Part shown: positions 6,652-21,643 of the stretch, one piece after another
How positions within the stretch are numbered: the first letter of the stretch is position 1
Layout of the letters: each line of letters starts with the position of its first letter
Assembly (NCBI RefSeq): GCF_000012905.2
Contig: NC_009007.1
Coordinates: 65,018 to 90,931, forward strand
DNA from: Cereibacter sphaeroides 2.4.1
GTDB lineage: Bacteria; Pseudomonadota; Alphaproteobacteria; Rhodobacterales; Rhodobacteraceae
Direction: 5' to 3'
DNA length: 25,914 nucleotides
Notes under the pieces: model-generated
Databases searched by the model: none
Told to the model about the DNA's origin: nothing
The model's input: the letters and a program-made list of their open reading frames with translations, nothing else
Made by a program: the position numbers and the translations under genes

Positions 6652-7201
6652 GAGCTGGCTCCTTCAACTCGGGAATGGGGGCGAGGGCTGCATGAAGCGT
6701 CTCGCGGAGGGATTGGGCGCTGTAGTCGGTCGGCAGCTCCATCCACGGGATTCCGGCAGAGGCGCAGGCCCGGCGTTTGATGGCGTCACGGCCGAGCGCG
6801 TCGCGACGGTCGCGGCGGGTGCGGCCGTAGTGACCGCGGCCCTGATACTCGATCACGAGAAGCGGCCTGAAATCGGCATCGACAAGAAGGAAGTCGGCGC
6901 GCTTTGCATTGATCCGCCAGAATGCCTTCTGGCTGCGGGCTGCAAGAAACTCCCCGTAGGAGACCTGGCAGAGGAGCCGCGGCCGGGGCTCCGGCAGTGA
7001 GGAGATCGCCCGGCTCAGGGAGCGGAAGAGGCGTTGCTCCGTCCGGTTCAGGACCGGCCGCGCCGTGTAGGAGGTCTCGAACCTGATCCGGAGAACTGCC
7101 AGAACCAGGACAAGCGCCACGAGGAGGGCGAGGGCGAGCCAGATCCCCGTGGGGATCTGGCCGTCCGAGAGGAGAACCGAAGCGGGCTCGAACCCGTCCA
7201 C
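6644..7201 (-). CDS. DUF2726-domain (restriction-endonuclease-like fold) protein with an N-terminal transmembrane helix
   Basis: The TM segment is IWLALALLVALVLVLAVL. The DUF2726 pattern follows: LNRTEQRLFRSL....LLCQVSYGEFL.......RINAKRADFLLVDADFRPLLVIEYQG.GH......RD..GRDAIKRRACASAGIPWMEL. Confidence 0.75.
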   Translation of the reverse strand: MDGFEPASVLLSDGQIPTGIWLALALLVALVLVLAVLRIRFETSYTARPVLNRTEQRLFRSLSRAISSLPEPRPRLLCQVSYGEFLAARSQKAFWRINAKRADFLLVDADFRPLLVIEYQGRGHYGRTRRDRRDALGRDAIKRRACASAGIPWMELPTDYSAQSLRETLHAALAPIPELKEPAHG

Positions 7202-7202
7202 C

Positions 7203-7694
7203 TCAGCATCCTTTCTCGAACTTCACCTTCTCGAGCTGACCGATGCGCTGCGCGATCAGCATGGCGTCGTTCACGTCCTTGAGCTGCTGCGTGCTGGACT
7301 CCCGGCCGGCCACCGCGCCAAGGGCCGAGCGCCCGGCATCGGTGGCAAGGCCCACATTGCGCAGGCCGGTGGCCGACCCCGCGTTCATCATGGCCGATCC
7401 GCCGATGACCGTGGCACCCACATCCACGAGCCCGCCGATCATGGCCGACTGGCGCTGCCGCGCCCGCTGCTCGCGCTCAACCTCGGCATAACGCGCATAG
7501 AGGTTGCCGAGCCGCTGGTTGACGACCGGACAGCTCAGCGCATAGTCGTCCTTGGAGGGCGGCTGCGTGGCGGTCATGAGACCCTGCATTCCGGTGCCCG
7601 CCGTCACCATGTCGGTCGCGGTGCCGCCGGTCACGCAACCGGAGAGCGTCAGCGCCGCCGCCAGAGCGGTCACGGTCTTAGCGATCTTCGTCAT
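7203..7694 (-). CDS. Lipoprotein, function unknown
   Basis: The signal peptide carries a lipobox (AAALTLSG-C). AAGGA lies upstream of the ATG. Its stop is 1 nt from the start of the DUF2726 gene. Confidence 0.7.
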   Translation of the reverse strand: MTKIAKTVTALAAALTLSGCVTGGTATDMVTAGTGMQGLMTATQPPSKDDYALSCPVVNQRLGNLYARYAEVEREQRARQRQSAMIGGLVDVGATVIGGSAMMNAGSATGLRNVGLATDAGRSALGAVAGRESSTQQLKDVNDAMLIAQRIGQLEKVKFEKGC

Positions 7695-7733
7695 TCCTTA
7701 ACCTTACTCGTTGATTTTATTACATAATTCTCA

Positions 7734-8555
7734 TTATTGGGCCGCCGCCGTGGAGGCGGAAAGCCGATCGAAGGCGGCCGTAAGACGGTCGGCCGCCATC
7801 ATGCCGGGCACCACTTCTCCATCCCGAAACACGAATGCCGGGGTGCCGGAAATCGAGAGCGCCTGGGCGAGGCGTCGGTTGCCGTCAATGATGGACGTGA
7901 TGTCGTCCTGCCGCCCCCGCGCCACGAGGGCCGGATAATCGTAGCCGGCCGCTCCGGCGAGGATCGAAAGCGCGGCCTCGTTGAGACCGCCCTTGTGCGA
8001 CAGGAGCGCGTTGTGAAAGCCAAGGTAGGCCTCGTCGCCGTGCTCCGCGCGGACAGCCAGAGCGAGCCTTGCAGCGGCTTCGGAGGTGGATCCGAGGATC
8101 GGAAACTCTTTCATCACCACCGCCACATCGTTCCGGCCGGACAGGGCTGCAGCGAGCTCCGGCAGCGCGCCTTTGCAGTAGCCGCACTGGTAATCGAAGA
8201 ACTCTACGGCGACGACCGGCGCGCTGGCATTGCCCTTGCGCGCATCGGCTCCTTGAAACAGAGCCGCCGCCTCGGCCTCGACCGCCGCGCGGGCGCCGGC
8301 GGTCTGCTTCTCCTTCTCCTGCCGCTCAAGCAGGGCGAAAACCTCGAGAACTACCTCGGGATTGCTGAGCAGGACGCTGCGGACCTGATCGGCGAACTCC
8401 GGGCCCGGCTCGGATTGCTTTGCCCCCTGCCCCGCAGCGGCAAGTAACGGCATCACCACGCTCCCCGCGGCCATAACGAGCACACCAGCCAGCGCCCCCG
8501 CAATTGATGCGCGCGTCAAAACGCCGCGTCGCTGCACCTTATCGTCACAACTCAT
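7734..8555 (-). CDS. DsbA-family thiol:disulfide oxidoreductase (periplasmic)
   Basis: It has a CxxC active site in the thioredoxin context FFDYQCGYCKGALPEL and a hydrophobic N-terminal signal or anchor. The start is set at 8555 (AAGGAG 6-7 nt upstream) rather than the track start at 8630. Confidence 0.85.
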   Translation of the reverse strand: MSCDDKVQRRGVLTRASIAGALAGVLVMAAGSVVMPLLAAAGQGAKQSEPGPEFADQVRSVLLSNPEVVLEVFALLERQEKEKQTAGARAAVEAEAAALFQGADARKGNASAPVVAVEFFDYQCGYCKGALPELAAALSGRNDVAVVMKEFPILGSTSEAAARLALAVRAEHGDEAYLGFHNALLSHKGGLNEAALSILAGAAGYDYPALVARGRQDDITSIIDGNRRLAQALSISGTPAFVFRDGEVVPGMMAADRLTAAFDRLSASTAAAQ

Positions 8556-8714
8556 AGCCACTCCTTGCAAACGAGATCGGCGGTGTCGTGCAACTGCGCT
8601 GAATGGGGATAACCATCTCGGCGTTGTCACGCACTAACCAATCCGTCTTTGCTCCACATGTGCAAACTCGTTATTGAATAGCGTTATGTTTCAGTTTCAG
8701 CAAAGGGTTTTGAG

Positions 8715-10997
8715 ATGTCGCACCTCCGCAAGGGCCAGCCGACACAGTTCGTCCGCGGCGGCCAGACCACGCAGCACTGGTGGCGCATGGCGGCGCAGGT
8801 GGTCCGCACCTCGCTCTTCGTCGCGCTGGCGGCCTTCACCCTCACCTACACGGCTCTCGTGCTTGCCAATTACGAGCTGCGCTACATGCGCGAGACCTTT
8901 GCGAGCTGGACCGCGCATTACAACGTCCGGCTGGGCCGGCCGGAGAAGATCATTTCTTACGTCGATCACCTCGACCGACGGCTCGAGCGGACGGCAGGAC
9001 AGATCGCGGCTGACCATCGGATGAACGCTCTTGCGGACGAGTATCGCCGCAATGCCTCGCTCTTCGCCTGGTATGCTCTCGTTCCGGCGGCCGCGGCGCT
9101 TCTGATCAGCACCGCCATTTTCGCCTGGGCCGGACAGCGGGTCGGGCAGAACGAACATGTGCGGGGAAGCCGCCTCATAGACCAGCGGGATCTCGCGCGC
9201 TGGTCCATGAGAAAGTGGAAGGCATACCAGAAGCGCTTCGGCCTCGGCCTGAAAAAGGGGCCACGCTACACAATCGCCGGCATCCCGTTCCCTCCGAACG
9301 CCGTGGAGGCGCAGACCGGGATCTTCGGAACGGTCGGGGTGGGCAAGACCAACGCCATCAAGGAGCTGCTGACCACCATCCGGGCACAGAACGGCCGAGC
9401 CATCATCTACGACCGCATGGGTGGCCTCGTCCGCGATTTCTACGATCCGGCCACCGACATTATCATCAATCCCTTCGACGCCCGATCACACATCTGGTCG
9501 CCGTTCGGCGAAGCCAGCACCCCGGAGGCTCTGGCGCAGATCGCCGAGGTCATGATCCCGCAGCGCCCCGGACAGAACGATCCTTTCTGGTCACAGACGG
9601 CGCGGCTGGTCTTCGAATATTCGGCGCGCTCACTCCTTCGCGCCAAGCGACCGACCAACGCAGACCTGCGCCGCGCGATCATGACGATCTCGGCCGAAGA
9701 GCTGGAGAAGCTGCTCGCAGGCACGCCGGGGGCTCATTTCTTCGGCAAGCACGTCGAGAAGACGTCGGCCTCGATCCGCGCAAACATGATTGCGGAGCTG
9801 CGGTTCCTCGAGTTTCTGCGTGACGACGGTGAGCTCTTTTCGGCGCGAGAGTGGGTCAAGTCGGAGCGACCCGGTTTCGTGTTTCTGACCGGCGATGCCG
9901 AACACTCGGCCGCGACCCGCAACATTATCTCCACCATCATCGAGGTATCGGCCAACGCGCTGATGACCTGCGAAGAGAGCCGCGATCCGAAGGTCTGGTT
10001 CTTCCTAGATGAGGTGCCGTCCCTCAACCGCCTGCCCTTCCTGCAATCGAAGCTGGCGGAGATCCGGCAGTTCGGGGGGGCTTTCGTGCTCGGCTACCAG
10101 GTCTTTGCGCAGCTGGAAGACATCTACGGAGAGAAAGGCGCGCAGGCCATCGCCGGCAACCTCAACAACCGCATCGTCTTCAACACGCCGGACGCGCGCA
10201 CGGCCAAGCTCTTTTCCGAAAGCCTCGGGTTCGAGGATGTGGTCGAACAACGGGAAAACCTGAGCTTCGGGGCGCACGAGTCTCGCGATGGCGTGGCCTT
10301 CATGAGCCAGCGCACGGAGCGGCCCATCGTCACCGCCTCTGAGATCCAGGCGCTGCCTCAGTTCGAGGCTCTGATCCGCTTTGCATATGACGCGCCAACT
10401 GCGCGCGTCCGGTTCGAGCCTGTCCAGGTGGAGCCGAAGGCCGAGAAGATCGTGCCCTATCAGGGTGGCGGCTTCGCTCTGGATGCCATGGATCCGCACA
10501 AGGCCCCTGCCCCGGCCCCGGCGGCAGATGAGGCGTCACTCGCCACGCGCTATGCCCCGGAGCTGCTTGGAAAGGTGCAGGAGGAACGGCGCGCACGGTT
10601 CGCGAGCTGGACCCCGGCGCAGCAGATCGCGGCCTTTGACGACTGGTTCGCAAAGGGCCTGCGACCGGACTTCGACGCTGCAGGCTTCTCCTTGCTGGCC
10701 CCTCTCGACGGCGTGCCGCCAGAAACGGCCTGGGACCACTATTACCGACAGCGCGTCCAGGGACACGATGAACCGACTTTCCGCATCACGCCCAACATGA
10801 TGCAGATGGTCACTAACCGCCCCCGCGCCCGGGAGGGTGCGGGTGCGGCGGTGGCCGAGGTGCCTGCCTATGCGGATCTTCGCCGCGCGGCCGAGGAAAA
10901 GATCATTCCCTTCCCGGGTCGCCACGCTGCGCCGCCCCCTGCCCGTCCAGCTGACCCTCTCACTGCGGGAATGGATGAGGAGGGCTCGCTGCTATGA
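8715..10997 (+). CDS. Type IV coupling protein (TraD/TrwB/VirD4-type)
   Basis: It has two N-terminal TM segments, Walker A GTVGVGKTN and Walker B VWFFLDEVPSL. Its stop overlaps the relaxase start as ATGA. Confidence 0.9.
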   Translation: MSHLRKGQPTQFVRGGQTTQHWWRMAAQVVRTSLFVALAAFTLTYTALVLANYELRYMRETFASWTAHYNVRLGRPEKIISYVDHLDRRLERTAGQIAADHRMNALADEYRRNASLFAWYALVPAAAALLISTAIFAWAGQRVGQNEHVRGSRLIDQRDLARWSMRKWKAYQKRFGLGLKKGPRYTIAGIPFPPNAVEAQTGIFGTVGVGKTNAIKELLTTIRAQNGRAIIYDRMGGLVRDFYDPATDIIINPFDARSHIWSPFGEASTPEALAQIAEVMIPQRPGQNDPFWSQTARLVFEYSARSLLRAKRPTNADLRRAIMTISAEELEKLLAGTPGAHFFGKHVEKTSASIRANMIAELRFLEFLRDDGELFSAREWVKSERPGFVFLTGDAEHSAATRNIISTIIEVSANALMTCEESRDPKVWFFLDEVPSLNRLPFLQSKLAEIRQFGGAFVLGYQVFAQLEDIYGEKGAQAIAGNLNNRIVFNTPDARTAKLFSESLGFEDVVEQRENLSFGAHESRDGVAFMSQRTERPIVTASEIQALPQFEALIRFAYDAPTARVRFEPVQVEPKAEKIVPYQGGGFALDAMDPHKAPAPAPAADEASLATRYAPELLGKVQEERRARFASWTPAQQIAAFDDWFAKGLRPDFDAAGFSLLAPLDGVPPETAWDHYYRQRVQGHDEPTFRITPNMMQMVTNRPRAREGAGAAVAEVPAYADLRRAAEEKIIPFPGRHAAPPPARPADPLTAGMDEEGSLL

Positions 10998-13900
10998 TGA
11001 GCGTGAGCAACGTCTCGGCCGGCGCCGCTGCCAGCGGATACTATCAGGCCGAAGGGTATTACGTCGCCGGAAGCCCTGAGGCAGAGGCGGCAGCTTCGTG
11101 GTTCGGCAGTGCGGCTGATGAGCTTGTCGCAATGGGTCAGGAAGAGTTTGCGGGGCGCGTGGACGACGCTGCGTTCTCGGCCATGCTCGACGGTCACGCT
11201 CCGCCGACCCAACGCGATGCCGAAGGCCATTGGAAGGAAGGTCAGACGCTCGGCCGCGTCGTGGACGGGGAGCGGCAGCACCGACCGGGGATCGACCTGA
11301 CCTTCTCCGCCTCCAAGTCGGTGTCGATCATCGGTCTGGTCGCTGGCGATGAGCGCGTGATCGCAGCCCATGACGAGGCGGTGAAGGCCGCCATGAGCTA
11401 CGTCGAAGAGAAGTTCGTCCGGACACGTCGGGAGGTGAACGGCGAGATCGTGGCGGTCCCCGGCAAGATGGTGGCCGGGCTTTTCCGCCATGATACGTCG
11501 CGGGCCCTCGATCCGCAGCTCCATACCCATGCCGTCATACAGAACATGGTCCTCGGCGAGGACGGCAAGTGGACCGCCCTCTCCAACGAGGAAATCTACC
11601 GCAACAAGATGCTGATCGGGGCGATCTACCGCAACGAGTTGGCGCAGAACCTCGAGCGGGCGGGATATGCCGTCGAGCGTGTCGGCCATGACGGCATCAC
11701 CGAGATCAAGGGCGTCCCGCGCGAGCTGATGGATGGCTTCTCGAAGCGCCGCAAGGAGATCGAGGCGGCCCTCGATGAGCGTGGGATCGAGAGGACGGCT
11801 GTAGATAGCGCATTGGCAGCCCTCGCCACCCGCAGGAACAAGCAGAAGGGCATCGACCGGGCAGAGCTGCGTGAAGCGTGGGAGAAGGAAGCGCAGTCCA
11901 TGGGCGTCTCCCTCGATCAGCTTCGCGAGCTCCGGCAGACAGCCACTCTGACGGCAGCCACGCGCCTGCCCGGCGTGACGCGAGACGGGATCGCTGCGCC
12001 CTCCCCTGCTGATCGCGCCGCGGCCGCCGTCGAGTTCGCGATTGCGCATGTGAGTGAACGCAATGCCGTCTACTCCGGCTCCGAGCTGGTCCGCGTGGCC
12101 CTGAGCCGAGCCAAGGATGTGGGGATCCGGCAGATCGAGGGCGCCATCGCGACCAAGGAAGAGACGGGCCGTCTGGTGCCGGTCCATGTCCATGCCTGGA
12201 ACGAGAAGCGCTCGCCCGATGCCATGACCCGCGGGGAGGGCTTCTCCGGGACGCTGAAGGCGATGGGCACCGCGCCGTATCAGAACGACCCTAGAAACCG
12301 CGACTCCTTCTTCGTGACCATCGAGACGCGGAACGGGGAGCAGACGGTCTGGGGTGCCGGCTTGCAGGCGGCGCTCGAACGGCAGGAAGCCAGTCCGGGC
12401 AGCCTTGTCCATCTGACGGTGCAGGGCCAGAAGCCCGTGACGGTGATCGGCGCCGATGGCAAACCGGTGTCCGCCCATCGCAATCTCTGGACGGCGGAAG
12501 TCATCGAACGCGCCTCGGAGCGGTCGGATCGCTCCAACGGCCCTCAGCCGCAGCGGGAGACGATCAGGCTCTATTCGGACGATGCCACCCTTGCCCTCGA
12601 GCGCATGGTGCTGGGCGAGTATCGGGCAGCCCGGCGTCAAGGCGGAGTGGAGTTGCCAGCTCGCCTGAGAGTCACTGGCGGGATCAAGATGAGCGGAGAA
12701 GCTCTTCTGCGTGACCGCCTTGACAAGACAACTCTGACGGAGGGCCAGAAGGAAGCGGTCGCACTCGGTCTCACAGGCAGAGGCCGGTTCGTCGGCGTGC
12801 AGGGGTATGCCGGCACGGGCAAAACGCACATGGTGGAAACCCTGCGCCGCTATGCCGAGCGGGCGGGCTTCACCGTGGAAGGCGCGGCACCGACGAACAA
12901 GGCCGCCGCAGAGCTCGCCTCGGCAGTGCCCGCGGCCGGCACCGTCGCCCGCTTCCTGCTCGCGGATGCTCCGGGCGACAAGAAGCGCTCCATCCTCGTG
13001 GTCGACGAGGCTGGGATGATCTCCACGCGCGACATGCACGCCCTGATGACCAAGGCAAACGAGCTCCGATACGCTCGGGTTATCCTCGTAGGTGACGTGA
13101 AGCAGCTCGACCCGGTGAGCGCGGGCTCGCCCTTCGCGCAGCTCCAGAAGGCGGGAATGCCGACCGCCATCATGGCCGACATTCAGCGCCAGAGAAACGA
13201 AGATGCCCGGAAAGCCGTGCTCCATGCCATCCGCGGCGAGGTCCGTGCTGCCTTCTCGCGGATCGAGGATCTTCGCACGCCAGAGAAGAACCAGAGCTTT
13301 ACCGGCGAGGTTGCCCGGGCGTGGCTCGGATTGCACAGCTCGGTGCGCGAGCGGACCGGGATTGTGGTTCTGACCAACCGCGTCCGGGGGGAAGTTAATG
13401 CCGCGATTCGCGACGAGTTGAAACGGGAACATCGGCTCGGCGCTCAGGATGTGACGGTCGCCAGTCTCACGCCGCTCTCGCTCACCCGCGCCGAAGCGCG
13501 CGAGGCGGCCAGCTACAAGGCTGGTGACGTGGTGATCTCGGTGCGCAGCGTGGAGGGGTTGGAGCGGGACAAACTCTACCGGGTTACATCCACCCTGCCC
13601 TATCAGAACAGCATCACCTTGCGTCCGGAGGGAGGCGGCGCCGAGGTCGCGCTGACACTCGGACATGGGTCGAAAGCTGCGGGATCGCTCGCCGCATTCG
13701 AGGTGGGCAAGCGCGAATTTGCGGCCGGCGATGAGGTCAAATTCGCGATCACCGACAAGGATTGCGGAGCGATTAACGGTGCGCGCGGCCGGATCACAAA
13801 GGTGACGGAAGCCCAGATCGACGTCACGCTGCACGGCGGGCGGAAGCTCTCCGTGCCCACGGATTCACTCGCCGCCCGTGGCCTAGACCATGCCTATGCG

Positions 13901-14329
13901 GCCACCGCACACGACTTTCAGGGCGCCACAGTGGACAGGATCATCGTGGGCATGACCCCCGATGAGCAGCTCACCAGCCAGAAGTCCTTCTACGTCAATA
14001 TCTCCCGCGCGCGGGACCATGTGACGCTTGTGACGACCGATCCCGGGAAGCTCGCTGATCGGATTCAGCGTGAGACCGGCGAACGTCCGGCCGCGCTCGA
14101 CGCCTACGCGCAGCGGCTCTCGGACGAGCGGAACGCGGCCGGAAAGGTGCCGCAGAATGAGCCCCCCTCCCCTGCCCGCGACCCTGACCGGGTGCCGCAA
14201 ATCCTGCGCGAGCAGGCGCAGAAACTGCGGCAGGCGGAGCCCCCGCAGGAGCGCACTGATCGGCAGGTGGAGCAATTCCTGGCGCAGTTCGAGGAGAAAC
14301 AGAAGGTGAAGGAAGGACCGATCCGGTGA
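10994..14329 (+). CDS. MOBF-family relaxase-helicase (TrwC/TraI-like)
   Basis: The N-terminal TrwC relaxase domain carries the histidine triad context HDTSRALDPQLHTHAVIQN. The central and C-terminal part is a RecD-like helicase (GYAGTGKT, ILVVDEAGM, VILVGDVKQL, AATAHDFQGATVD). Confidence 0.92.
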   Translation: MMSVSNVSAGAAASGYYQAEGYYVAGSPEAEAAASWFGSAADELVAMGQEEFAGRVDDAAFSAMLDGHAPPTQRDAEGHWKEGQTLGRVVDGERQHRPGIDLTFSASKSVSIIGLVAGDERVIAAHDEAVKAAMSYVEEKFVRTRREVNGEIVAVPGKMVAGLFRHDTSRALDPQLHTHAVIQNMVLGEDGKWTALSNEEIYRNKMLIGAIYRNELAQNLERAGYAVERVGHDGITEIKGVPRELMDGFSKRRKEIEAALDERGIERTAVDSALAALATRRNKQKGIDRAELREAWEKEAQSMGVSLDQLRELRQTATLTAATRLPGVTRDGIAAPSPADRAAAAVEFAIAHVSERNAVYSGSELVRVALSRAKDVGIRQIEGAIATKEETGRLVPVHVHAWNEKRSPDAMTRGEGFSGTLKAMGTAPYQNDPRNRDSFFVTIETRNGEQTVWGAGLQAALERQEASPGSLVHLTVQGQKPVTVIGADGKPVSAHRNLWTAEVIERASERSDRSNGPQPQRETIRLYSDDATLALERMVLGEYRAARRQGGVELPARLRVTGGIKMSGEALLRDRLDKTTLTEGQKEAVALGLTGRGRFVGVQGYAGTGKTHMVETLRRYAERAGFTVEGAAPTNKAAAELASAVPAAGTVARFLLADAPGDKKRSILVVDEAGMISTRDMHALMTKANELRYARVILVGDVKQLDPVSAGSPFAQLQKAGMPTAIMADIQRQRNEDARKAVLHAIRGEVRAAFSRIEDLRTPEKNQSFTGEVARAWLGLHSSVRERTGIVVLTNRVRGEVNAAIRDELKREHRLGAQDVTVASLTPLSLTRAEAREAASYKAGDVVISVRSVEGLERDKLYRVTSTLPYQNSITLRPEGGGAEVALTLGHGSKAAGSLAAFEVGKREFAAGDEVKFAITDKDCGAINGARGRITKVTEAQIDVTLHGGRKLSVPTDSLAARGLDHAYAATAHDFQGATVDRIIVGMTPDEQLTSQKSFYVNISRARDHVTLVTTDPGKLADRIQRETGERPAALDAYAQRLSDERNAAGKVPQNEPPSPARDPDRVPQILREQAQKLRQAEPPQERTDRQVEQFLAQFEEKQKVKEGPIR

Positions 14330-14958
14330 GGAAGGACAACATCAACGACCGCTACAGGTTCGTGCTCGGCCCCCGCGCCAAGGCTCTGACGGAGACGCAC
14401 TGTCCGCCCGGTGAGCTTCCCGGCAGCGATCATCTGGAGGCAGGGATCGAGGCGCTGCAGCAAGCCCTTGAGGTCGAGCGCGGGGTGCTGCGGCGCCTGC
14501 AGGACGAGTTCGATCGACTGGATGGTCGGATGGTCAACCTCGTCTCTGCGCACAACCATGGTCTCCGGGGGCTGATGATGATGACCGGACAGATGGTTCG
14601 CGAGCTCAACGTCATCCGGAAGATCCTGATCGTCTCGGCGGCATCGAACAATGAGCAGGCCGAACGGCTCTACGACAAGGCGGTGCCGGCGATCATGGAG
14701 ATGCGCGCCACGCTCGCTGTCTGGCGGGAGCGCGAAGGTCTCGAGGTGCCCGAGTTCTCCTTCGAGCAGGAGGAGCGGATCCTCCAGCAGCTCGTCCAGA
14801 ACCCGGCCGAGCACCGCCATCCCGATCATGGCGAGGAGCCGGAGACGCTTGGCGAGGCGCTTGCGGAGCAGGTGCAGCGGATCGGCGAAGCCTTCGATCC
14901 GAGCCTCACGGATGAGCGCCACGAACGTGAAATGGAGATGGGTGACGATGAGCGGTAA
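14326..14958 (+). CDS. Hypothetical acidic, probably coiled-coil protein, translationally coupled to the relaxase
   Basis: The GTG start overlaps the relaxase stop (GTGA). GGAAGGA lies about 8 nt upstream. No family was recognised. Confidence 0.5.
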   Translation: MRKDNINDRYRFVLGPRAKALTETHCPPGELPGSDHLEAGIEALQQALEVERGVLRRLQDEFDRLDGRMVNLVSAHNHGLRGLMMMTGQMVRELNVIRKILIVSAASNNEQAERLYDKAVPAIMEMRATLAVWREREGLEVPEFSFEQEERILQQLVQNPAEHRHPDHGEEPETLGEALAEQVQRIGEAFDPSLTDERHEREMEMGDDER

Positions 14959-14992
14959 GGCCGATCCGAGCGCTCAGAAGGCCGAAAACTAC

Positions 14993-15032
14993 CGTGGCAC
15001 GTCGTGCCACGCGCGTGGCACACTGTGCCACG
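14993..15032. promoter_or_regulatory. Two adjacent perfect 19-bp palindromes (CGTGGCAC-n3-GTGCCACG) separated by 2 bp
   Basis: Read directly: cgtggcac gtc gtgccacg / cg / cgtggcac act gtgccacg. They start 35 bp after the stop of the relaxase operon. They are candidate protein-binding sites, oriT inverted repeats or an operator. Confidence 0.5.
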
Positions 15033-15070
15033 GCCCCGAAAAACAACGTAAATACAGCGCGTTGGGAGCC

Positions 15071-15093
15071 GGGGGCAAATTACGCCCCCTTTT
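15071..15093 (+). terminator. Rho-independent terminator of the coupling protein-relaxase operon
   Basis: GGGGGC-aaattac-GCCCCC stem-loop followed by TTTT. Confidence 0.6.
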
Positions 15094-15130
15094 AAGACGA
15101 AAAGCCTTTATTTATAAAGGCTTGAAGGCA

Positions 15131-15967
15131 ATGGGCAGCTTGCTGCGTCAGGTGTGTCCTCTTCAGACCGGAGAGGCAGCCGTAAGGCTGCCGATCCGAG
15201 GCCTCCTCGCCCTCGCCGTCGCAGGCGGATGCCTGCTCCTCGGCCCCTGCCCCGTCTCGGCCGAGGCTTGGAAAGCCTCGGCCGAGACCACCTGGGCGAG
15301 CGGGTCCTCCTTCAGTCCGCCCGCGGATCGCCGCCAGCCTGGCCCCGGTTCATCCTTCCTCGAAGCGCAGGCCAGCTCATCCTTCGCGCTCGTGCCGAGG
15401 GCCGCCCGCCAGAAGAAAAGCCGGGCCTTCGTCATGCCGACCGACCGCGATGAGTTCGTGCGAATCCGTGCGCTGGTTCATCACGCCGAAAGCGGCGCGG
15501 CCGGCTATGACGATTACCACCGAAGCGCACCCGTGCCCCCGCCCCGCGCTCCCTCGACCATGACGCTCGACCAGATCCGGCAATGGATCGCCGCTACGCC
15601 GGGGCAGCAACATGCCATCGGCCGCTATCAGATCATCCCCTCCACCTTGGAAAGCCTGGCCTCGCGCGCAACCCTCCCGGGCTCCACGCTCTTCAGCGCT
15701 CCGGTTCAGGACAGCATGGCCAGCATCCTCATTCTCGACGCTGGCTATGTGGAGCTGAAAAATGGCGCGATCACGCTCGACAGGTTCATGGACAACCTCG
15801 CCCGGATCTGGGCTGGCTTCCCCATGGCGAGCGGGAAGTCCGCCTATGAGGGCGTGGCCGGCAACAGAGCCACGATCAGCCGCAAATTCTACGCAGAGCG
15901 GATGGCCGAAATCTTCCCCGTAGAGGCCCGTAGAGACCTTCGGGCTACCGAGGTGGCGGCAAAGTAG
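15131..15967 (+). CDS. Secreted lambda-lysozyme-like muramidase/lytic transglycosylase (GH104-type domain)
   Basis: The C-terminal domain aligns by eye with phage lambda R (HHAESG vs AWSEGT, GRYQ, F..P.QD, IWAGFP vs IWASLP). The N-terminus is signal-like (LLALAVAGGCLLLG). The part of the track ORF upstream of 15131 overlaps the previous gene and is rejected. Confidence 0.7.
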   Translation: MGSLLRQVCPLQTGEAAVRLPIRGLLALAVAGGCLLLGPCPVSAEAWKASAETTWASGSSFSPPADRRQPGPGSSFLEAQASSSFALVPRAARQKKSRAFVMPTDRDEFVRIRALVHHAESGAAGYDDYHRSAPVPPPRAPSTMTLDQIRQWIAATPGQQHAIGRYQIIPSTLESLASRATLPGSTLFSAPVQDSMASILILDAGYVELKNGAITLDRFMDNLARIWAGFPMASGKSAYEGVAGNRATISRKFYAERMAEIFPVEARRDLRATEVAAK

Positions 15968-16060
15968 CGTGAGGGCCCCAGACGGGGCTCTCCGTGAGCC
16001 TGCGGTTAGGTGCCGAGTTGGTTCCTCCGGCACCATCAGCTAGCGCCGCTCCATCCCATC

Positions 16061-16516
16061 GCGACCGCACCGCCGCTTCGCCGCACCGCCGCACATCCGC
16101 ATGGCCGCCTCACCGCACCGCCGCACGTCCGCATGGCCGCCTCACCGCACCGCCGCACGTCCGCATGTCCGCATCACCGCACCGCCGCACGTCCGTATGG
16201 CCGCCTCACCGCACCGCCGTATGTCCGCATGGCCGCCTCACCGCACCGCCGCATGTCCGCATGGCCGCCTCACCGCACCGCCGCACATCCGCATGGCCGC
16301 CTCACCGCACCGCCGCACATCCGCATGGCCGCCTCACCGCACCGCCGCAGGTCCGCATGGCCGCCTCACCGCACCGCCGCAGGTCCGCATGGCCGCCTCA
16401 CCGCACCGCCGCACGTCCGCATGGCCGCTTAATCGCATGTCCGCACCGACGCATGTCCGCTTCGCCGCTTTGCCGCATGTCCGCATCTACGCCTTGACGC
16501 ATGTCCGCATCGCCGC
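16061..16516. repeat. 57 consecutive in-phase octamers NNNNCCGC with a 32-bp higher-order unit (11 copies, 16099-16450); candidate partition centromere and par operator
   Basis: GCATGGCCGC (variants GCATGTCCGC at 16163 and GTATGGCCGC at 16195) recurs at 16099, 16131, ... 16419 with exact 32-bp spacing. The octamer register is unbroken for 456 bp. The array ends 38 bp before the parA start. Confidence 0.85.
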
Positions 16517-16553
16517 CATAACGGATCGACAATCGAGCAGCCTGGAGACGGCA

Positions 16554-17285
16554 ATGAAAGTGATAACCGCTTACAGTCACAAAGGCGGAACCGGGAAGAC
16601 CACGGCGTTGATGATGCTGGCGTCCGCCATAGAAGCCCGAGGGCAGTCCGCACTATTGGTAGACTGCGACCCTCACCAGTCCTTCAAGGCTTACGAGACC
16701 CACAGCAAGAGCACGTCCCCGGCTATCTGGTCCGACAGGATGGACGTGATCTATCTGCACTATGAGGCGACGAAGGTCGCTGTCCTTGAACAGACGCTTC
16801 TCGACGCTGATGAGGGGGGCAGGTTCGACTACTGCCTCTTGAACCTCGCCGGGGTAGATCATCCCTTCAACCGCCACGTCCTGCGCTATGCCGAGCTGAC
16901 GCTCCTGCCGTTCGCGCCTGCGGCGCTCGACATGATGGAGCTGCCTGGGGCGCTTGATGTCCTCAGACAGCTCGGTGACCAAGGCGAGGTAGGGCAGGCA
17001 CGCGTTCTTTTGACAAAGATGCGCTCAAAGATGACCAGCGCTCAGACCGGCTACATTGACGCCGTGTTGGCCGGTTTCCCTGTGATGAAGACCCAGATCC
17101 GCGAAACGGCTGTCTTGGGCGACATTGTGATGCGAGGCCTTTTAGGAAAGGCCATCGCCGCGTGGGAGCCGGAGGCGAGCGGCCTGCAAAAGATGGAAAT
17201 CGCCCGTCTCCGCGAGGCGCTGGAAGAGTGTCAGGCACTGCTGGCGGAGGTCGATTCAATCATTGAGCTTGGAGAAGCGGCATGA
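16554..17285 (+). CDS. parA: ParA-family partition ATPase (no N-terminal HTH, type Ib-like)
   Basis: MKVITAYSHKGGTGKTT is a deviant Walker A motif. GGAGA lies 5 nt upstream of the ATG at 16554. The 151 codons upstream in the track ORF are translation of the repeat array. Confidence 0.9.
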   Translation: MKVITAYSHKGGTGKTTALMMLASAIEARGQSALLVDCDPHQSFKAYETHSKSTSPAIWSDRMDVIYLHYEATKVAVLEQTLLDADEGGRFDYCLLNLAGVDHPFNRHVLRYAELTLLPFAPAALDMMELPGALDVLRQLGDQGEVGQARVLLTKMRSKMTSAQTGYIDAVLAGFPVMKTQIRETAVLGDIVMRGLLGKAIAAWEPEASGLQKMEIARLREALEECQALLAEVDSIIELGEAA

Positions 17286-17842
17286 AGAACAAAGGCCTTC
17301 TTACTAGGGCAGGGGGCTCGCCTTTATCCTTCCGCAAGGATCCGGTGCCAACGGATATGCCCAATCGCATAGCGGCTGACGCCTCGGCCGCTCCTGTCGT
17401 TGCGGCAGATCAGCCGGAGATTGCTCGGGGCGAGACAAATCCTGTCGGAAAAGCACCTCGCGCCACCCCAACGCCACGGCGGCGGCAATCGCCATCGTCG
17501 GAGGACAAGGCCCCTCGCTACACGCTCCGCCTGACCGTGGAGGCGAAAGTCCTCGAGGAGCTCGATCGCCTTCTCGGCGACATGGACGACAAGAGTCGCA
17601 TCGCTGCGAAAAAGGCTCTGGTTCGCACATTCGCTTCCCAGGTGGCCGAAAGGACGCCGAAGAAGGCCGAATATGTGCCCACGGACCCCGTAGTCTATCG
17701 CATCGACCTGAAAATCCCGGACAGTCTGAGGGCGGCCATCTTGGCCGTTGAAGGCGCCAATCCCCTCGAACCGGCGGGCACCGCACTGTCCCGTAACCTG
17801 GCGCCCGTCTTCGCTGCTTTCGTCCGCAAGCTGGGAAAGTAG
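17282..17842 (+). CDS. Partition partner protein (ParG/ParB-like), putative ribbon-helix-helix centromere binder with a disordered N-terminus
   Basis: ATGA overlap with the parA stop. The segment PRYTLRLTVEAKVLEELDRLLG has a beta-strand then helix pattern typical of RHH proteins. The assignment comes from position and pattern only. Confidence 0.6.
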   Translation: MKNKGLLTRAGGSPLSFRKDPVPTDMPNRIAADASAAPVVAADQPEIARGETNPVGKAPRATPTPRRRQSPSSEDKAPRYTLRLTVEAKVLEELDRLLGDMDDKSRIAAKKALVRTFASQVAERTPKKAEYVPTDPVVYRIDLKIPDSLRAAILAVEGANPLEPAGTALSRNLAPVFAAFVRKLGK

Positions 17843-17942
17843 ATAACCGCAAATGAAGCGACGGGGCCAAGGTAGCCTCACCTCGGCAGCCCCGTCACAT
17901 CTGATCCAGGCGTCCCACGTTTGTCTCTATGGCGCATCGGGT

Positions 17943-17975
17943 GAGCCGTGAGACACCGCAGGTGCCTCACGGCTT
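17943..17975 (+). other. 33-nt stem-loop (14 bp) downstream of the par operon; possible terminator without a U-tract
   Basis: GAGCCGTGAG a CACC gca GGTG c CTCACGGCTT, read directly. Confidence 0.3.
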
Positions 17976-18165
17976 GCCCCTCGGCGAGAGCGGGGGGGAG
18001 GGGTCAAGGGGCCGCGCGGAGCCGCCCGGAGCCACGCGCAGCAAAGCGAGCATGGCGAGGACGGCGAGCACGGCGGGCGCTTGCGCCCCTTGCCCTTGAC
18101 CCCGATGGGGGCGGAGCCCCCCTGACGGCGCGCGTCTGCGCGCCATGCTCCTCACCACGGCGAAG

Positions 18166-19621
18166 CCACGCTGGCCGCCCACAATCTCGCCTGCGATCCC
18201 GGAGGGGTGACGGCGCGGCAGGTGCCGACGTGCCGGAAGGGCCGAAGGCCCCTAGGCTCGTCGGTGCCTGACGCGGCGGCGCGCCGGAGGGGAGGGCTCG
18301 TGCCACGCCGGCCGCCCGCAGATCTCGCCCGCAATCCCGGAGGGGTGACGGCGCGGCAGGTGCCGACGTGCCGGAAGGGCCGAAGGCCCCTAGGCTCGTC
18401 GGTGCCTGACGGGACGGCGCGCCGGAGGGGAGGTCTCGAGGCACGCCGGCCGCCCGCAGATCTCGGCCGCGATCCCGGAGGGGTGACGGCGCGGCAGGTG
18501 CCGACGTGCCGGGAGGGCCGAAGGCCCCTAGGCTCGTCGGTGCCTGACGCGGCGGCGCGCCGGAGGGGAGGTCTCGAGGCACGCCGGCCGCCCGCAGATC
18601 TCGCCCGCGATCCCGGAGGGGTGACGGCGCGGCAGGTGCCGACGTGCCGGGAGGGCCGAAGGCCCCTAGGCTCGTCGGTGCCTGACGCGGCGGCGCGCCG
18701 GAGGGGAGGTCTCGAGGCACGCCGGCCGCCCGCAGATCTCGCCCGCAATCCCGGAGGGGTGACGGCGCGGCAGGTGCCGACGTGCCGGAAGGGCCGAAGG
18801 CCCCTAGGCTCGTCGGTGCCTGACGGGACGGCGCGCCGGAGGGGAGGGCTCGTGCCACGCCGGCCGCCCGCAGATCTCGGCCGCGATCCCGGAGGGGTGA
18901 CGGCGCGGCAGGTGCCGACGTGCCGGGAGGGCCGAAGGCCCCTAGGCTCGTCGGTGCCTGACGCGGCGGCGCGCCGGAGGGGAGGGCTCGTGCCACGCCG
19001 GCCGCCCGCAGATCTCGCCCGCGATCCCGGAGGGGTGACGGCGCGGCAGGTGCCGACGTGCCGGAAGGGCCGAAGGCCCCTAGGCTCGTCGGTGCCTGAC
19101 GGGACGGCGCGCCGGAGGGGAGGGCTCGTGCCACGCCGGCCGCCCGCAGATCTCGGCCGCGATCCCGGAGGGGTGACGGCGCGGCAGGTGCCGACGTGCC
19201 GGGAGGGCCGAAGGCCCCTAGGCTCGTCGGTGCCTGACGCGGCGGCGCGCCGGAGGGGAGGTCTCGAGGCACGCCGGCCGCCCGCAGATCTCGGCCGCAA
19301 TCCCGGAGGGGTGACGGCGCGGCAGGTGCCGACGTGCCGGAAGGGCCGAAGGCCCCTAGGCTCGTCGGTGCCTGACGGGACGGCGCGCCGGAGGGGAGGG
19401 CTCGTGCCACGCCGGCCGCCCGCAGATCTCGGCCGCGATCCCGGAGGGGTGACGGCGCGGCAGGTGCCGACGTGCCGGGAGGGCCGAAGGCCCCTAGGCT
19501 CGTCGGTGCCTGACGCGGCGGCGCGCCGGAGGGGAGGGCTCGTGCCACGCCGGCCGCCCGCAGATCTCGGCCGCGATCCCGAAGGGGTGACGGCGCGGCA
19601 GGTGCCGACGTGCCGGAAGGC
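18166..19621. repeat. Tandem array of a 138-bp unit, about 10.5 copies, non-coding
   Basis: The phase marker CCCGGAGGGG occurs at 18198, 18336, 18474 ... 19440, with a variant CCCGAAGGGG at 19578. Spacing is exactly 138 bp with no indels. A degenerate remnant extends back to about 18119. Confidence 0.95.
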
Positions 19622-19711
19622 CCCCGCGGATCTCCGCTCGGCGTCCGGCTCTGGTCGTGCTTCCGCTTCCGGGATTTGGTGGGCGGGGCCTTTGCCCCGC
19701 CCGGTGGTTCC

Positions 19712-20575
19712 TCAGCCTGCCTTCAGCTCGGCCATGCGCTCGGTGAGCATCCAGAGCGCGCGGTTGAGGCCGCGGGACTGGTCGATGCCGGCCACCTCGC
19801 GGACGGTCTGGCGGCGGAAATGGCCGCTTTCGGTCCGGGTGCGGCCGCGCATCCCTCCGCGCAGGGTGTTCTCCTGCACCACGTTGAAAGCGGTCCACAG
19901 GTCGGTGGCGCGGTCGGTCGAGCGCCGCGGCCGCAGGAGCTCGGCCGGCGTGATCGGCGCTTCCTTGCCCTCGGCGGTGCCGGGGAAGCGAAGGCCGTGC
20001 GCGGCTTCGGCCAGGATCTCGCGCTCCCGGTCCTGCAGCTGGATAGCCTTGAACCGGTCCACCTGCTCGGTCACGCGGGGGGCCTCCTCAAGCACGCGAT
20101 AGGCGCCCTCGATGACTTCGCCAATGGCATTGCCGCTATGGCGGACCTTCACCTCGTCGAAGGTCTCGCCGCACATGAGGCCGTTGGCGCAGACAAACCG
20201 AAAGAACCCCGGGATCATCTGATAGGCGCTCGTGCCGTCATTCGCGTTGACCAGCACGATCTCGAACGCCTCGCCCTCGGCATTGACGATGCCGCGGTGA
20301 CGCAGGCGCAGCATGTGCTTCGTAAACTCGGCCTTGCCCTCGACTCGGGTGCGGGCCTGCTGAGCAAAGAACGGTTCGAATCCTTCCGCGCGCAGGCCAT
20401 CCAGCACGGTGACGGTGGGGACAGGAGCGAACCGGGCGCTGCGGCTCTCGTGAGCCTCGGTCGCAAAGATCGAGGGAACGCGCGCCATCAGCTCGTCATT
20501 CGTCAGCGGCTGATCGCCCCGGCTGTAGGCCGCGCCGCCGTTGCTCATCCCGCGCATATAGAAATGATAGCTCAT
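19712..20575 (-). CDS. DUF932-domain protein (common in plasmid and ICE transfer or leading regions)
   Basis: PLTNDELMARVPSIFATEAHESRSARFAPVPTVTVLDGLRAEGFEPFFAQQARTR....FTKHMLRLRH matches the DUF932 N-terminal signature. AAGGAGA lies 5-6 nt upstream of the ATG. Confidence 0.9.
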   Translation of the reverse strand: MSYHFYMRGMSNGGAAYSRGDQPLTNDELMARVPSIFATEAHESRSARFAPVPTVTVLDGLRAEGFEPFFAQQARTRVEGKAEFTKHMLRLRHRGIVNAEGEAFEIVLVNANDGTSAYQMIPGFFRFVCANGLMCGETFDEVKVRHSGNAIGEVIEGAYRVLEEAPRVTEQVDRFKAIQLQDREREILAEAAHGLRFPGTAEGKEAPITPAELLRPRRSTDRATDLWTAFNVVQENTLRGGMRGRTRTESGHFRRQTVREVAGIDQSRGLNRALWMLTERMAELKAG

Positions 20576-20894
20576 CGTCGTCTCCTTCGGTGCGCAACGG
20601 TGGGGTCTTTGCCCTCATCCGCCAGTGGGGCGCGGCCTCTCCGATCTGACCTCTGGAAAGCACCGCGTGCTTTCCGGAGGACAGAGCGGGGAGGGCGAAG
20701 CCCTGCCTGCGGCCACGGGGCCGGATGAGACAGGGGCCGGTGACGGGGAAAATTGGGGGGCACCCGCGCGGGCTCGCCCGCGTGGGGGGAGCCGATTTTC
20801 TCCGGCGCCGGTGACGCGCCCCAGGCGCGGCATCACAACCCCTGTTCAGCCGGAACCGGGGATGTCAGGCGGATCCAGCACCTGCAAAAAGTGT

Positions 20895-20947
20895 CGCGCC
20901 GCTCCCGCGGCGCGTCCTTGCCAACTCGATCCGCGCCTTCGCGGATC
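20895..20947. repeat. Diverged partial third copy of the two-hairpin 5' part of the 202-bp element
   Basis: CGCGCCGC-tccc-GCGGCGCG is followed 13 nt later by GATCCGCG-cctt-CGCGGATC TCCA. The second hairpin arms and the TCCA are identical to those in the copies at 22243 and 23321. Confidence 0.5.
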
Positions 20948-21643
20948 TCCATCGACCTCACCGCATCGAGGAGAGCTGCAGCCCGATCGGCAAGGCCCGC
21001 GCTCTCAGCTCGCCCGCGCGAGGATCGTCACCCGAATGGGCGGAGACAGGGCGTCCTATCGGACCATGCACGGCTGCGACATGACCGGCTCGGAGAGACG
21101 GGCAGGGCGCCCGCCGCGCAGGGACGAGAGGGCGTCATGGCTCCGGTCCCGGCCGCTTGCGGACGGGACTAGAGCCGTGCCCCGGCTACGCCGGGGTCGC
21201 GCCCAGACATCCCCTACATGCGCAAGGAAATGCCTCCTGCCTAATCATCACTACATGCGCCTATCCGAATACATTAAAGTGTCCGCCCCTGAGAAAGAGG
21301 TAAGGAGCCGGAGTATCAAGTCCCATCTACTAACCGTCTGATACCAAATGACTAATTCAAGGCAGCCACCAAGTATAGCGTAAATGCCAACGGACTGAGG
21401 ATTGTCGGTCAGCCGGGTCAAGCAAACAATCTTCGTTCGCAGGCGCCAACTGGTGGATAAATCTTGGGCCTCGTGTTTGACCGTAAAGTTTCCGAGGCTG
21501 TATATCTGGCACGTCCACTAAAAGGACGCGGCCCGCTCTGCCCTGGCCGGCAGGCGGGCCGCTCGATCTCGACGCGGGCCAAGATCAGGTCACGAGTTAT
21601 GTCTGACACAGGCCCGCACCTTCGTAAACTGTTAGGAGGTGTC

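Follow-up and report, generated by a model that had tools for sequence, protein, structure and literature searches.

A 138-nt unit repeated head to tail lies between a partition operon and a DUF932 gene on a plasmid of Cereibacter sphaeroides 2.4.1 (NC_009007.1, positions 65,018 to 90,931; this whole stretch of 25,914 nt is hereafter the window, and coordinates refer to it unless another record is named). The question raised by this locus is whether so regular an array encodes a protein, is bound by proteins in the maintenance of the plasmid, or is something else. The reading that we tentatively favour is that of a lineage-specific, recombination-driven, non-coding hairpin minisatellite, whose effect, if any, would probably be exerted as single-stranded RNA or DNA. 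The segment 15900-21400 (5.5 kb), which includes the array, is 100% identical to the ~153-kb conjugative plasmid D-E of C. sphaeroides 2.4.1 and its derivatives. That plasmid carries a second, paralogous copy of the array and of the leader that precedes it (12208-12960 of NZ_CP015289.1, 5.5 units of 137/138 nt), which we call locus 2, the copy in the window being locus 1.

The array and its open reading frames

The original prediction had described about 10.5 copies of a 138-bp unit, and this was borne out by Tandem Repeats Finder, which returned 10.6 head-to-tail copies on the plus strand at 18165-19620 (96% matches, 0% indels), beginning in the linker part of the unit and ending within a core, the two parts that are described below. 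A repeat search of the window found eleven in-register copies, always spaced by 138 nt, the incomplete first copy falling short of the rest by 1 nt. In the in-register listing each full unit differs from the consensus at 3-6 positions. About eight sites are dimorphic (1, 26, 31, 73, 110/112 and 132/137); site 110 is linked with 112, and site 132 with 137 and with position 1 of the next unit. The two unit types tend to alternate, which gives the array a weak 276-bp super-period. The G+C content is 0.77-0.79 (78% overall) as against ~0.63 in the flanks, and the plus strand is G-rich, with a GC skew of +0.07 to +0.12. An identical array is present in one draft and in five complete assemblies made independently from 2.4.1 derivatives, which excludes an assembly artefact. 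The units abut with no unique sequence between them, so that the array is not a CRISPR locus, in which unique spacers lie between short repeats, and a unit of 138 bp, as against ~17-22 bp, sets it apart from classical iterons; on both counts we agree with the prediction. The array moreover lies ~4 kb from repC, with the DUF932 gene and two other genes intervening.

Three open reading frames (ORFs) are present at the array, as had been stated (18004..19548 and 18152..19300 on the minus strand, 18207..20102 on the plus strand), and the array had been taken to be non-coding. The related arrays confirm that view. Their unit lengths are 138, 137, 137, 138 and 137 nt at locus 2, and 138, 139 and 138 nt in plasmid pORIO2 of C. 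azotoformans, the changes falling in the linker part of the unit, and no reading frame is therefore kept. Thus, the exact 138-nt period without indels stands for the array of the window and fails for its relatives, and a period that is a multiple of three is a property of the window array alone and not of the repeat family. No ORF runs across the paralogous array of locus 2, where the longest has 198 aa. The G+C content by codon position is flat, with 0.82/0.73/0.80 in the best frame against ~0.67/0.48/0.80 in the flanking genes, and at the second position it is 0.73-0.82 in every frame of the array against ~0.48 in real genes. Neither the minus frame (18004-19548) nor the plus frame (18207-19619) has a homologue among 5.8 billion protein clusters, and the array frames have no match in Pfam. 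The Prokaryotic Genome Annotation Pipeline (PGAP) puts no gene on the array. The draft annotation of AKVW01000007.1 calls a minus-strand ORF of 514 aa across it (record positions 6723-8267), a call that we regard as spurious. The array is almost certainly a non-coding satellite.

Anatomy and variation of the module

The array is the second part of a two-part module, in which a non-coding leader of 256 bp (17909-18164, plus strand) is followed by 0.75 to 10.6 units. In our alignment the leader precedes the array in 4 of 4 sequence contexts, and its two copies on the D-E plasmid share 99% identity by alignment and blastn, the arrays being ~94-95% identical. The G-runs of the leader carry single-base and 12-nt indels among the contexts, from which it follows that the leader holds no conserved ORF. 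A G-run motif on its plus strand, GGGGGGGAGGGGTCAAGGGG (17992-18011), fits a G-quadruplex pattern, is length-polymorphic between plasmids and is partly deleted in plasmid pORIO3. The leader also contains an inverted repeat with 19-nt arms and a 3-nt loop (17939-17979, plus strand). Within it is the 9-mer GCAGGTGCC, which recurs in every unit and is found nowhere else in the 26 kb. The left boundary of the module is constant in all contexts, and its right end differs within the unit, falling at core position 36 in the window, 25 at locus 2 and in pORIO2, and 64 in pORIO3. At the right junction of the window array, the 3' flank of the DUF932 gene (19621-19711) holds a G+C-rich hairpin (19681-19702), and homology with the azotoformans plasmids restarts at 19625.

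The unit consists of a conserved core of ~85 nt (GGGTGACGG...GCGCGCCGGAG) and a faster-evolving linker of ~52 nt. The motif CCGGRRGGG occurs three times per unit, 31 times in the array as against 3 in the rest of the window. Folding predicts one nested hairpin of 52 nt per unit (for example 18495-18546, plus strand), built of a 12-bp outer stem, middle stems of 3 and 2 bp, a 5-bp GGGCC/GGCCC inner stem and a GAA loop. Two G.T/G.U pairs of the outer stem on the plus strand become A.C mismatches on the minus strand. As single-stranded DNA (ssDNA), the hairpin has a predicted energy of -25.9 kcal/mol on the plus strand (z = -5.8) and of -20.7 on the minus strand (z = -4.3), and the RNA fold of three units gives z = -3.6 and z = -1.9, respectively. 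The hairpin varies at 3 of 52 columns, compared with 19 of 87 elsewhere in the unit (p = 0.015), and the three columns that vary sit at weak pairs or at bulges. In 15 distinct units, drawn from three arrays of two species, no change is seen at 26 of the 33 hairpin pairs, and 97.7% of the cells are paired. Complementarity that is nested over 52 nt, tolerates bulges and has its wobble pairs on one strand only argues for a folded single strand rather than for a duplex protein site.

That the copy number varies between relatives, a point on which the prediction had proposed a check, is clear from the long-read assemblies from which we took the counts. The D-E plasmids of 2.4.1 (five assemblies and the draft) have 10.6 copies. 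The 43.5-kb plasmids have 8.6, through a clean loss of units 3-4, and one of them, CP186572, has a second allele of 8.6 copies in which one unit is converted. There are 5.5 copies at locus 2 of C. sphaeroides, 3.5 at the same locus in pORIO2, and 0.75 copy in pORIO3, where the leader is followed by one truncated, diverging unit. Two contigs (one metagenomic) with 3.6 and 0.6 copies are probably collapsed and were left out. Entire units are thus lost and gained within the time span of laboratory work, even between sublines of one strain, and this pattern of a non-coding head-to-tail repeat with whole-unit differences in copy number between close relatives is that of a minisatellite, or variable-number tandem repeat (VNTR).

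The unit has a narrow distribution. In PLSDB it is found in ten records, all from Cereibacter, and on the 153-kb D-E plasmid the unit and leader occur at two sites only. An exact pattern of the 35-nt core has 0 matches in metagenome and viral collections. A scan of genome contigs, in which Cereibacter chromosomes were not covered, with a loose pattern (hairpin arms, variable gap) gave at least 120 single chance matches in high-G+C genomes, none of those among the matches listed resembling the unit or the leader. The DUF932-bearing MOBP plasmids of Cereibacter have no such array, and the literature searched and Rfam contain no description of this 138-nt repeat. The product of the gene upstream of the module (partner1, see below) is likewise restricted to Cereibacter. 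The module therefore appears, from these searches, to be confined to one small lineage of F-type (MOBF/MPF_F) Cereibacter plasmids, the D and E ('S factor'-like) elements, in two species.

Possible roles of the array

Under the minisatellite reading, whole units would be gained and lost by unequal crossing-over or slippage and homogenised between the two plasmid loci, and the module would have become common to two related conjugative elements through the exchange of a mosaic segment. Among the roles proposed for the array, that of an ssDNA- or RNA-structure array fits the predicted anatomy best, because the hairpin is nested and strand-asymmetric. Any effect would most likely be mediated by the hairpins of the plus strand, more likely in read-through RNA than in ssDNA. 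In pORIO3, as in the window, the module comes after a plus-strand operon and is flanked by convergent genes, and at locus 2 it follows a 75-bp centromere-like array. A read-through RNA of the plus strand would carry a block of very stable stem-loops, and one might speculate that such a block buffers neighbouring transcription units or protects the upstream message, as hairpins of the repetitive extragenic palindromic (REP) type do. Such an effect would scale with copy number and be non-essential. It is possible, on these structural grounds, that the hairpin array acts in this way, as a structural RNA or ssDNA element whose modest effect depends on dosage; almost as likely is a satellite that is close to selective neutrality.

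Several observations weigh against the hairpin minisatellite as we have drawn it. At least three copies are kept in 4 of the 5 long-read contexts, in two species and always beside par genes, which could mean a maintenance function. The stems are invariant and compensatory pairs number 0 across the 15 distinct units, so that covariation speaks neither for nor against the folding. The strand asymmetry of the folding depends on just two wobble positions per hairpin, and the low variability of the hairpin, which is modestly significant, could reflect homogenisation or mutational bias instead of selection. Finally, scans found no intrinsic-terminator-like or promoter-like site in the leader or the array, and the hairpin has no U-tract and is followed by ACGCGGCGG, so that it is not a classical terminator.

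The most serious competitor is a cis-acting duplex maintenance site, an accessory centromere or a site of pairing (handcuffing) or incompatibility, bound by a protein of the plasmid or the host at the palindromic core. Its classical analogue is sopC of F, 12 x 43 bp downstream of sopB. The module is never more than ~1 kb away from a par operon. Every unit has an inverted repeat and three of the CCGGRRGGG motifs that are so enriched in the array, GCAGGTGCC is common to all units and to the inverted repeat of the leader, and copy number also differs in the region's other arrays. The adjacency to par expected of a repeat centromere of the sopC/parC type is seen at both loci. Co-variation with the binding protein, on the other hand, is not: the units are ~95% identical, whereas the partner proteins of the two ParA ATPases share 28% of their amino acids, and the parA genes themselves are 69% identical in nucleotides and 62% in amino acids. 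Moreover, the module is downstream of par1 at locus 1 yet ~140 bp upstream of parA2 at locus 2, where it splits the upstream repeats of par2, separating a 75-bp x 10.2 array of the AACCCGGCA type from promoter-proximal copies of AACCCGGCA. Each parA has its own distinct array of 8-9-bp sub-repeats immediately upstream (CCGCAY and AACCCGGCA, respectively). As the module has not co-diverged with either partner and each par system has an upstream array of its own, a par-specific centromere is disfavoured. On the 75-bp x 10 array PGAP annotates a hypothetical protein, WP_198404988.1 (minus strand, 10998-11789 of NZ_CP015289.1), a gene that is probably spurious, as 75 is divisible by three.

The syntenic metagenomic relative L132 has the order of the window (MobF, two genes, 8-bp repeats, ParA, partner, and DUF932 beyond) at 67-71% nucleotide identity, and lacks both the leader and a long-unit array; its par operon is followed by two hairpins resembling terminators. 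With 0.75 unit in pORIO3 and none in L132, the backbone functions of transfer, partition and replication can do without the array. The D and E parts, separate records in an earlier reference, both carry the module, and the name D-E combines the plasmid E of that older reference with its fragment D (PMC6256690). A centromere, handcuffing site or incompatibility site shared by two co-resident replicons would be expected to destabilise both. To this is added that a nested complementarity of 52 nt with bulges and wobble pairs is atypical of protein sites. A protein-bound duplex site thus seems unlikely, and the second centromere, handcuffing or incompatibility array that the original prediction had put forward loses ground with it, as a ~95%-identical module stands beside two diverged par systems that have short repeats of their own and is almost or wholly missing from two relatives. 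It is quite likely that the adjacent type-Ib-like par loci have their centromere elsewhere than in the module, and the sites of par1 and par2 would then be the sub-repeat arrays of 8-9 bp directly upstream of each parA.

A further alternative is that the array acts in trans, as a long or processed non-coding RNA whose plus strand, rich in GGAGG/GGGAGGG, would be a sponge of anti-Shine-Dalgarno small RNAs (sRNAs) or of an RNA-binding protein. In every context the module runs in the same direction as the operon upstream of it, the plus strand folds better than shuffled sequence and carries ~31 purine-rich GGAGG-type motifs, and there is a precedent in the tandem CcsR1-4 RNAs of C. sphaeroides (PMC8034643). 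However, the GGGAGGG motifs lie largely within stems of the predicted folds, promoter-like sites are lacking, and the element is dispensable in pORIO3 and L132. Rfam 15 gave no match at the gathering score over the whole window, and with E up to 10 there were only chance-level matches to miRNA and snoRNA families, of 17-22 bits. We therefore consider a trans-acting RNA improbable. Of the same low probability, in our view, is a more ambitious proposal, that leader and array together form an undescribed strand-specific plasmid element. A plus-strand RNA, arising by read-through or from the leader, or the plus strand itself as ssDNA, would then display some ten identical 52-nt hairpins together with some thirty GGAGG-type motifs. 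Such an element could be a dosage-tunable sponge or insulator that sets the expression of par and tra and the establishment of the plasmid, or a structured maintenance site common to co-resident plasmids, and its copy number would be a rapidly evolving control knob.

Less probable still is an ssDNA-active element of conjugation, be it in the form of hairpins on the transferred strand resembling Frpo or single-strand initiation (ssi) sites, or with the leader as origin of transfer (oriT) and the array entering the recipient first. The plasmids are typed as conjugative MOBF/MPF_F, and the hairpins are strong as ssDNA on both strands. The leader starts with ACGTTTGTCTCTATGG (17917-17932), which we take to resemble the nic region of R388, followed by the 19-nt-arm inverted repeat, and it contains the only TTGTCTNTA of the window. 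This match is statistically weak, as 12 of 100 shuffles also have at least one, and the inverted repeat is on the wrong side of the motif for the geometry of R388; the leader as oriT is kept only as part of this rival. The hairpins also lack the -35/-10 elements that Frpo requires (criteria of PMC11541004), and a scan of 15900-21400 found no -35/-10-like pairs. The conventional position of oriT in a MOBF plasmid, upstream of the coupling-protein/relaxase operon, is here the AT-rich divergent intergenic region 8631-8786 between a DsbA-like gene (minus strand) and the coupling-protein gene, which makes this region a candidate. It holds a small inverted repeat, TTTGC...GCAAA, followed by GTTATTGAATAGCG. 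By the geometry of F and R388, an oriT at this place would make the array late-entering, and the weaker-folding minus strand would be the one transferred. The nearest relatives of the relaxase outside Cereibacter are less than 46% identical, which rules out a comparative test of the nic site. A 1992 study reportedly mapped oriV, IncB and oriT on the 42-kb S factor.

A protein of 46-residue repeats, to which the three frames open through the array and the 514-aa ORF of the AKVW01000007.1 draft might point, is already refuted by the 137- and 139-nt units of the related arrays, which break all frames, and the second-position G+C and the lack of homologues and Pfam matches leave it practically no chance.

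Plasmid setting and comparison with known systems

The gene order of the window is coupling protein (8715-10997), MobF/TrwC relaxase (10994-14329), two unassigned genes, a 32-bp array, ParA1, its partner, the 138-nt array, DUF932 (minus strand) and RepC (minus strand). The neighbours named in the prediction, a ParA/VirC1-like ATPase with a 186-aa partner upstream and a minus-strand DUF932 gene downstream, were found as described. ParA1 (16554-17285, plus strand) is a Walker-type partition ATPase by Pfam (VirC1/CbiA/AAA_31), 62% identical to ParA2. Its start at 16554 was set by alignment with ParA2; PGAP and the ORF list start it inside the 32-bp array (16293 or 16101), which is probably wrong. 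The partner, partner1 (17282-17842, plus strand, 186 aa), is putatively the protein that binds the par1 centromere; it matches no family, and its identity to partner2 is 28%. Neither partner1 nor the two genes after mobF have a match in Pfam, NCBIfam or PDB that points to a DNA-binding fold. The leader begins 66 bp and the array 323 bp downstream of the partner1 gene, and the DUF932 gene (19712-20575, minus strand; Pfam, E = 3.8e-45) is convergent with the par operon. The 32-bp array (16065-16517; 13.2 copies with 8-bp CCGCAY sub-repeats, Tandem Repeats Finder) has a strong negative GC skew and lies wholly upstream of the ParA1 start. Its counterpart in pORIO3 has 4.8 copies, and L132 has CCGCCTTT x 20 at the same place. 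As it sits where small ParA systems usually have their centromere or operator, it is probably the centromere/operator of par1, to which partner1 would bind.

The second gene after mobF (14912-15967) has a C-terminal endolysin-like match (phrog_90, E = 6.6e-12) and may encode a transfer-associated cell-wall hydrolase. Where the two genes after mobF meet, there is a palindromic repeat, CGTGGCACACCGTGCCACG x 2 (14993-15032), which is also seen in the locus-2 region of NZ_CP015289.1. In L132 (4651-4693) it is 88% conserved between flanks of 64-67% identity, and a conserved cis function, for example as an operator or in the relaxosome, is possible. A block of 627 bp upstream of DUF932 (20582-21207) has a 97%-identical duplicate beside three small genes in pORIO2, in pORIO3 and at locus 2, and marks a mosaic, recombining region. 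The neighbouring transfer region from coupling protein to MobF (5.6 kb) is 99.4% identical between the loci. NZ_CP015289.1 holds a pair of nearly identical F-type transfer modules, which include two traL-traG blocks, together with two solitary repC genes and one repABC cassette, and the 153-kb D-E plasmid thus looks like a cointegrate of two related conjugative elements. The 43.5-kb plasmids with par1 and the array exist separately in other sublines.

If the array is functional, it would be an unusual plasmid element beside partition genes, of long units and single-strand structure, whose dosage shifts within laboratory time scales. Such a function could be tested directly in strain 2.4.1, a much-used genetic model for which RNA-seq data abound. 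Even if neutral, the array is a hypervariable marker for 2.4.1 sublines. It also breaks or collapses short-read assemblies and has been mis-annotated as a 514-aa protein, and it is a marker of the mosaic stretch, subject to recombination, by which the D and E plasmids are joined and parted.

Among known systems, the repeat centromeres sopC of F, parC1/parC2 of pB171 and parC of R1 have units of 6-43 bp that co-vary with the binding protein. The array resembles them as a set of tandem direct repeats beside a parA-type operon, with an inverted repeat per unit and ~10-12 copies. It differs in that its unit of 138 bp is nearly unchanged at two diverged par systems that already have short-repeat arrays of their own, and that the module stands on different sides of the two operons and is nearly gone in pORIO3. 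REP elements and bacterial interspersed mosaic elements (BIMEs) are of 20-40 nt, dispersed genome-wide and clustered in alternating orientation, and can stabilise upstream mRNA. What the array has in common with them is an imperfect, G+C-rich palindrome with the capacity to fold in RNA, placed at operon ends and between convergent genes. The 138-nt copies, which we compared from plasmids and not from chromosomes, are in contrast strictly head-to-tail, at two sites of a 153-kb plasmid.

In the same organism, CcsR1-4 are four homologous sRNAs, co-transcribed with ccaF1 and cut from its 3' untranslated region, each unit having two hairpins with CCUCCUCCC in the loops and a conservation of the Rfam type across alphaproteobacteria (PMC8034643). 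The array shares with them homologous structured units in tandem downstream of a gene. Unlike them, it is known from its sequence alone, matches no RNA family and has the purine-rich complement on the co-oriented strand. Frpo elements are long imperfect hairpins upstream of leading-region genes which rebuild -35/-10 boxes and are active only in one strand of a conjugative plasmid (PMC11541004). Long imperfect hairpins on a conjugative plasmid are common to Frpo or ssi sites and to the array, whose hairpins however lack -35/-10 boxes, recur ten times over and probably belong to the section of the plasmid that enters late.

Minisatellites or VNTRs such as the mycobacterial interspersed repetitive units (MIRUs) have intergenic units of tens to ~100 bp, with a function that is mostly unknown. 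Like these, the array is a non-coding, intergenic tandem repeat in fixed orientation to transcription, with a copy number that varies between close strains. It departs from them in being plasmid-borne at two loci of one lineage, and in its longer unit, its invariant 52-nt hairpin and its fixed 256-bp leader. In kind, the array is thus a bacterial minisatellite with a hairpin core, carried on a plasmid.

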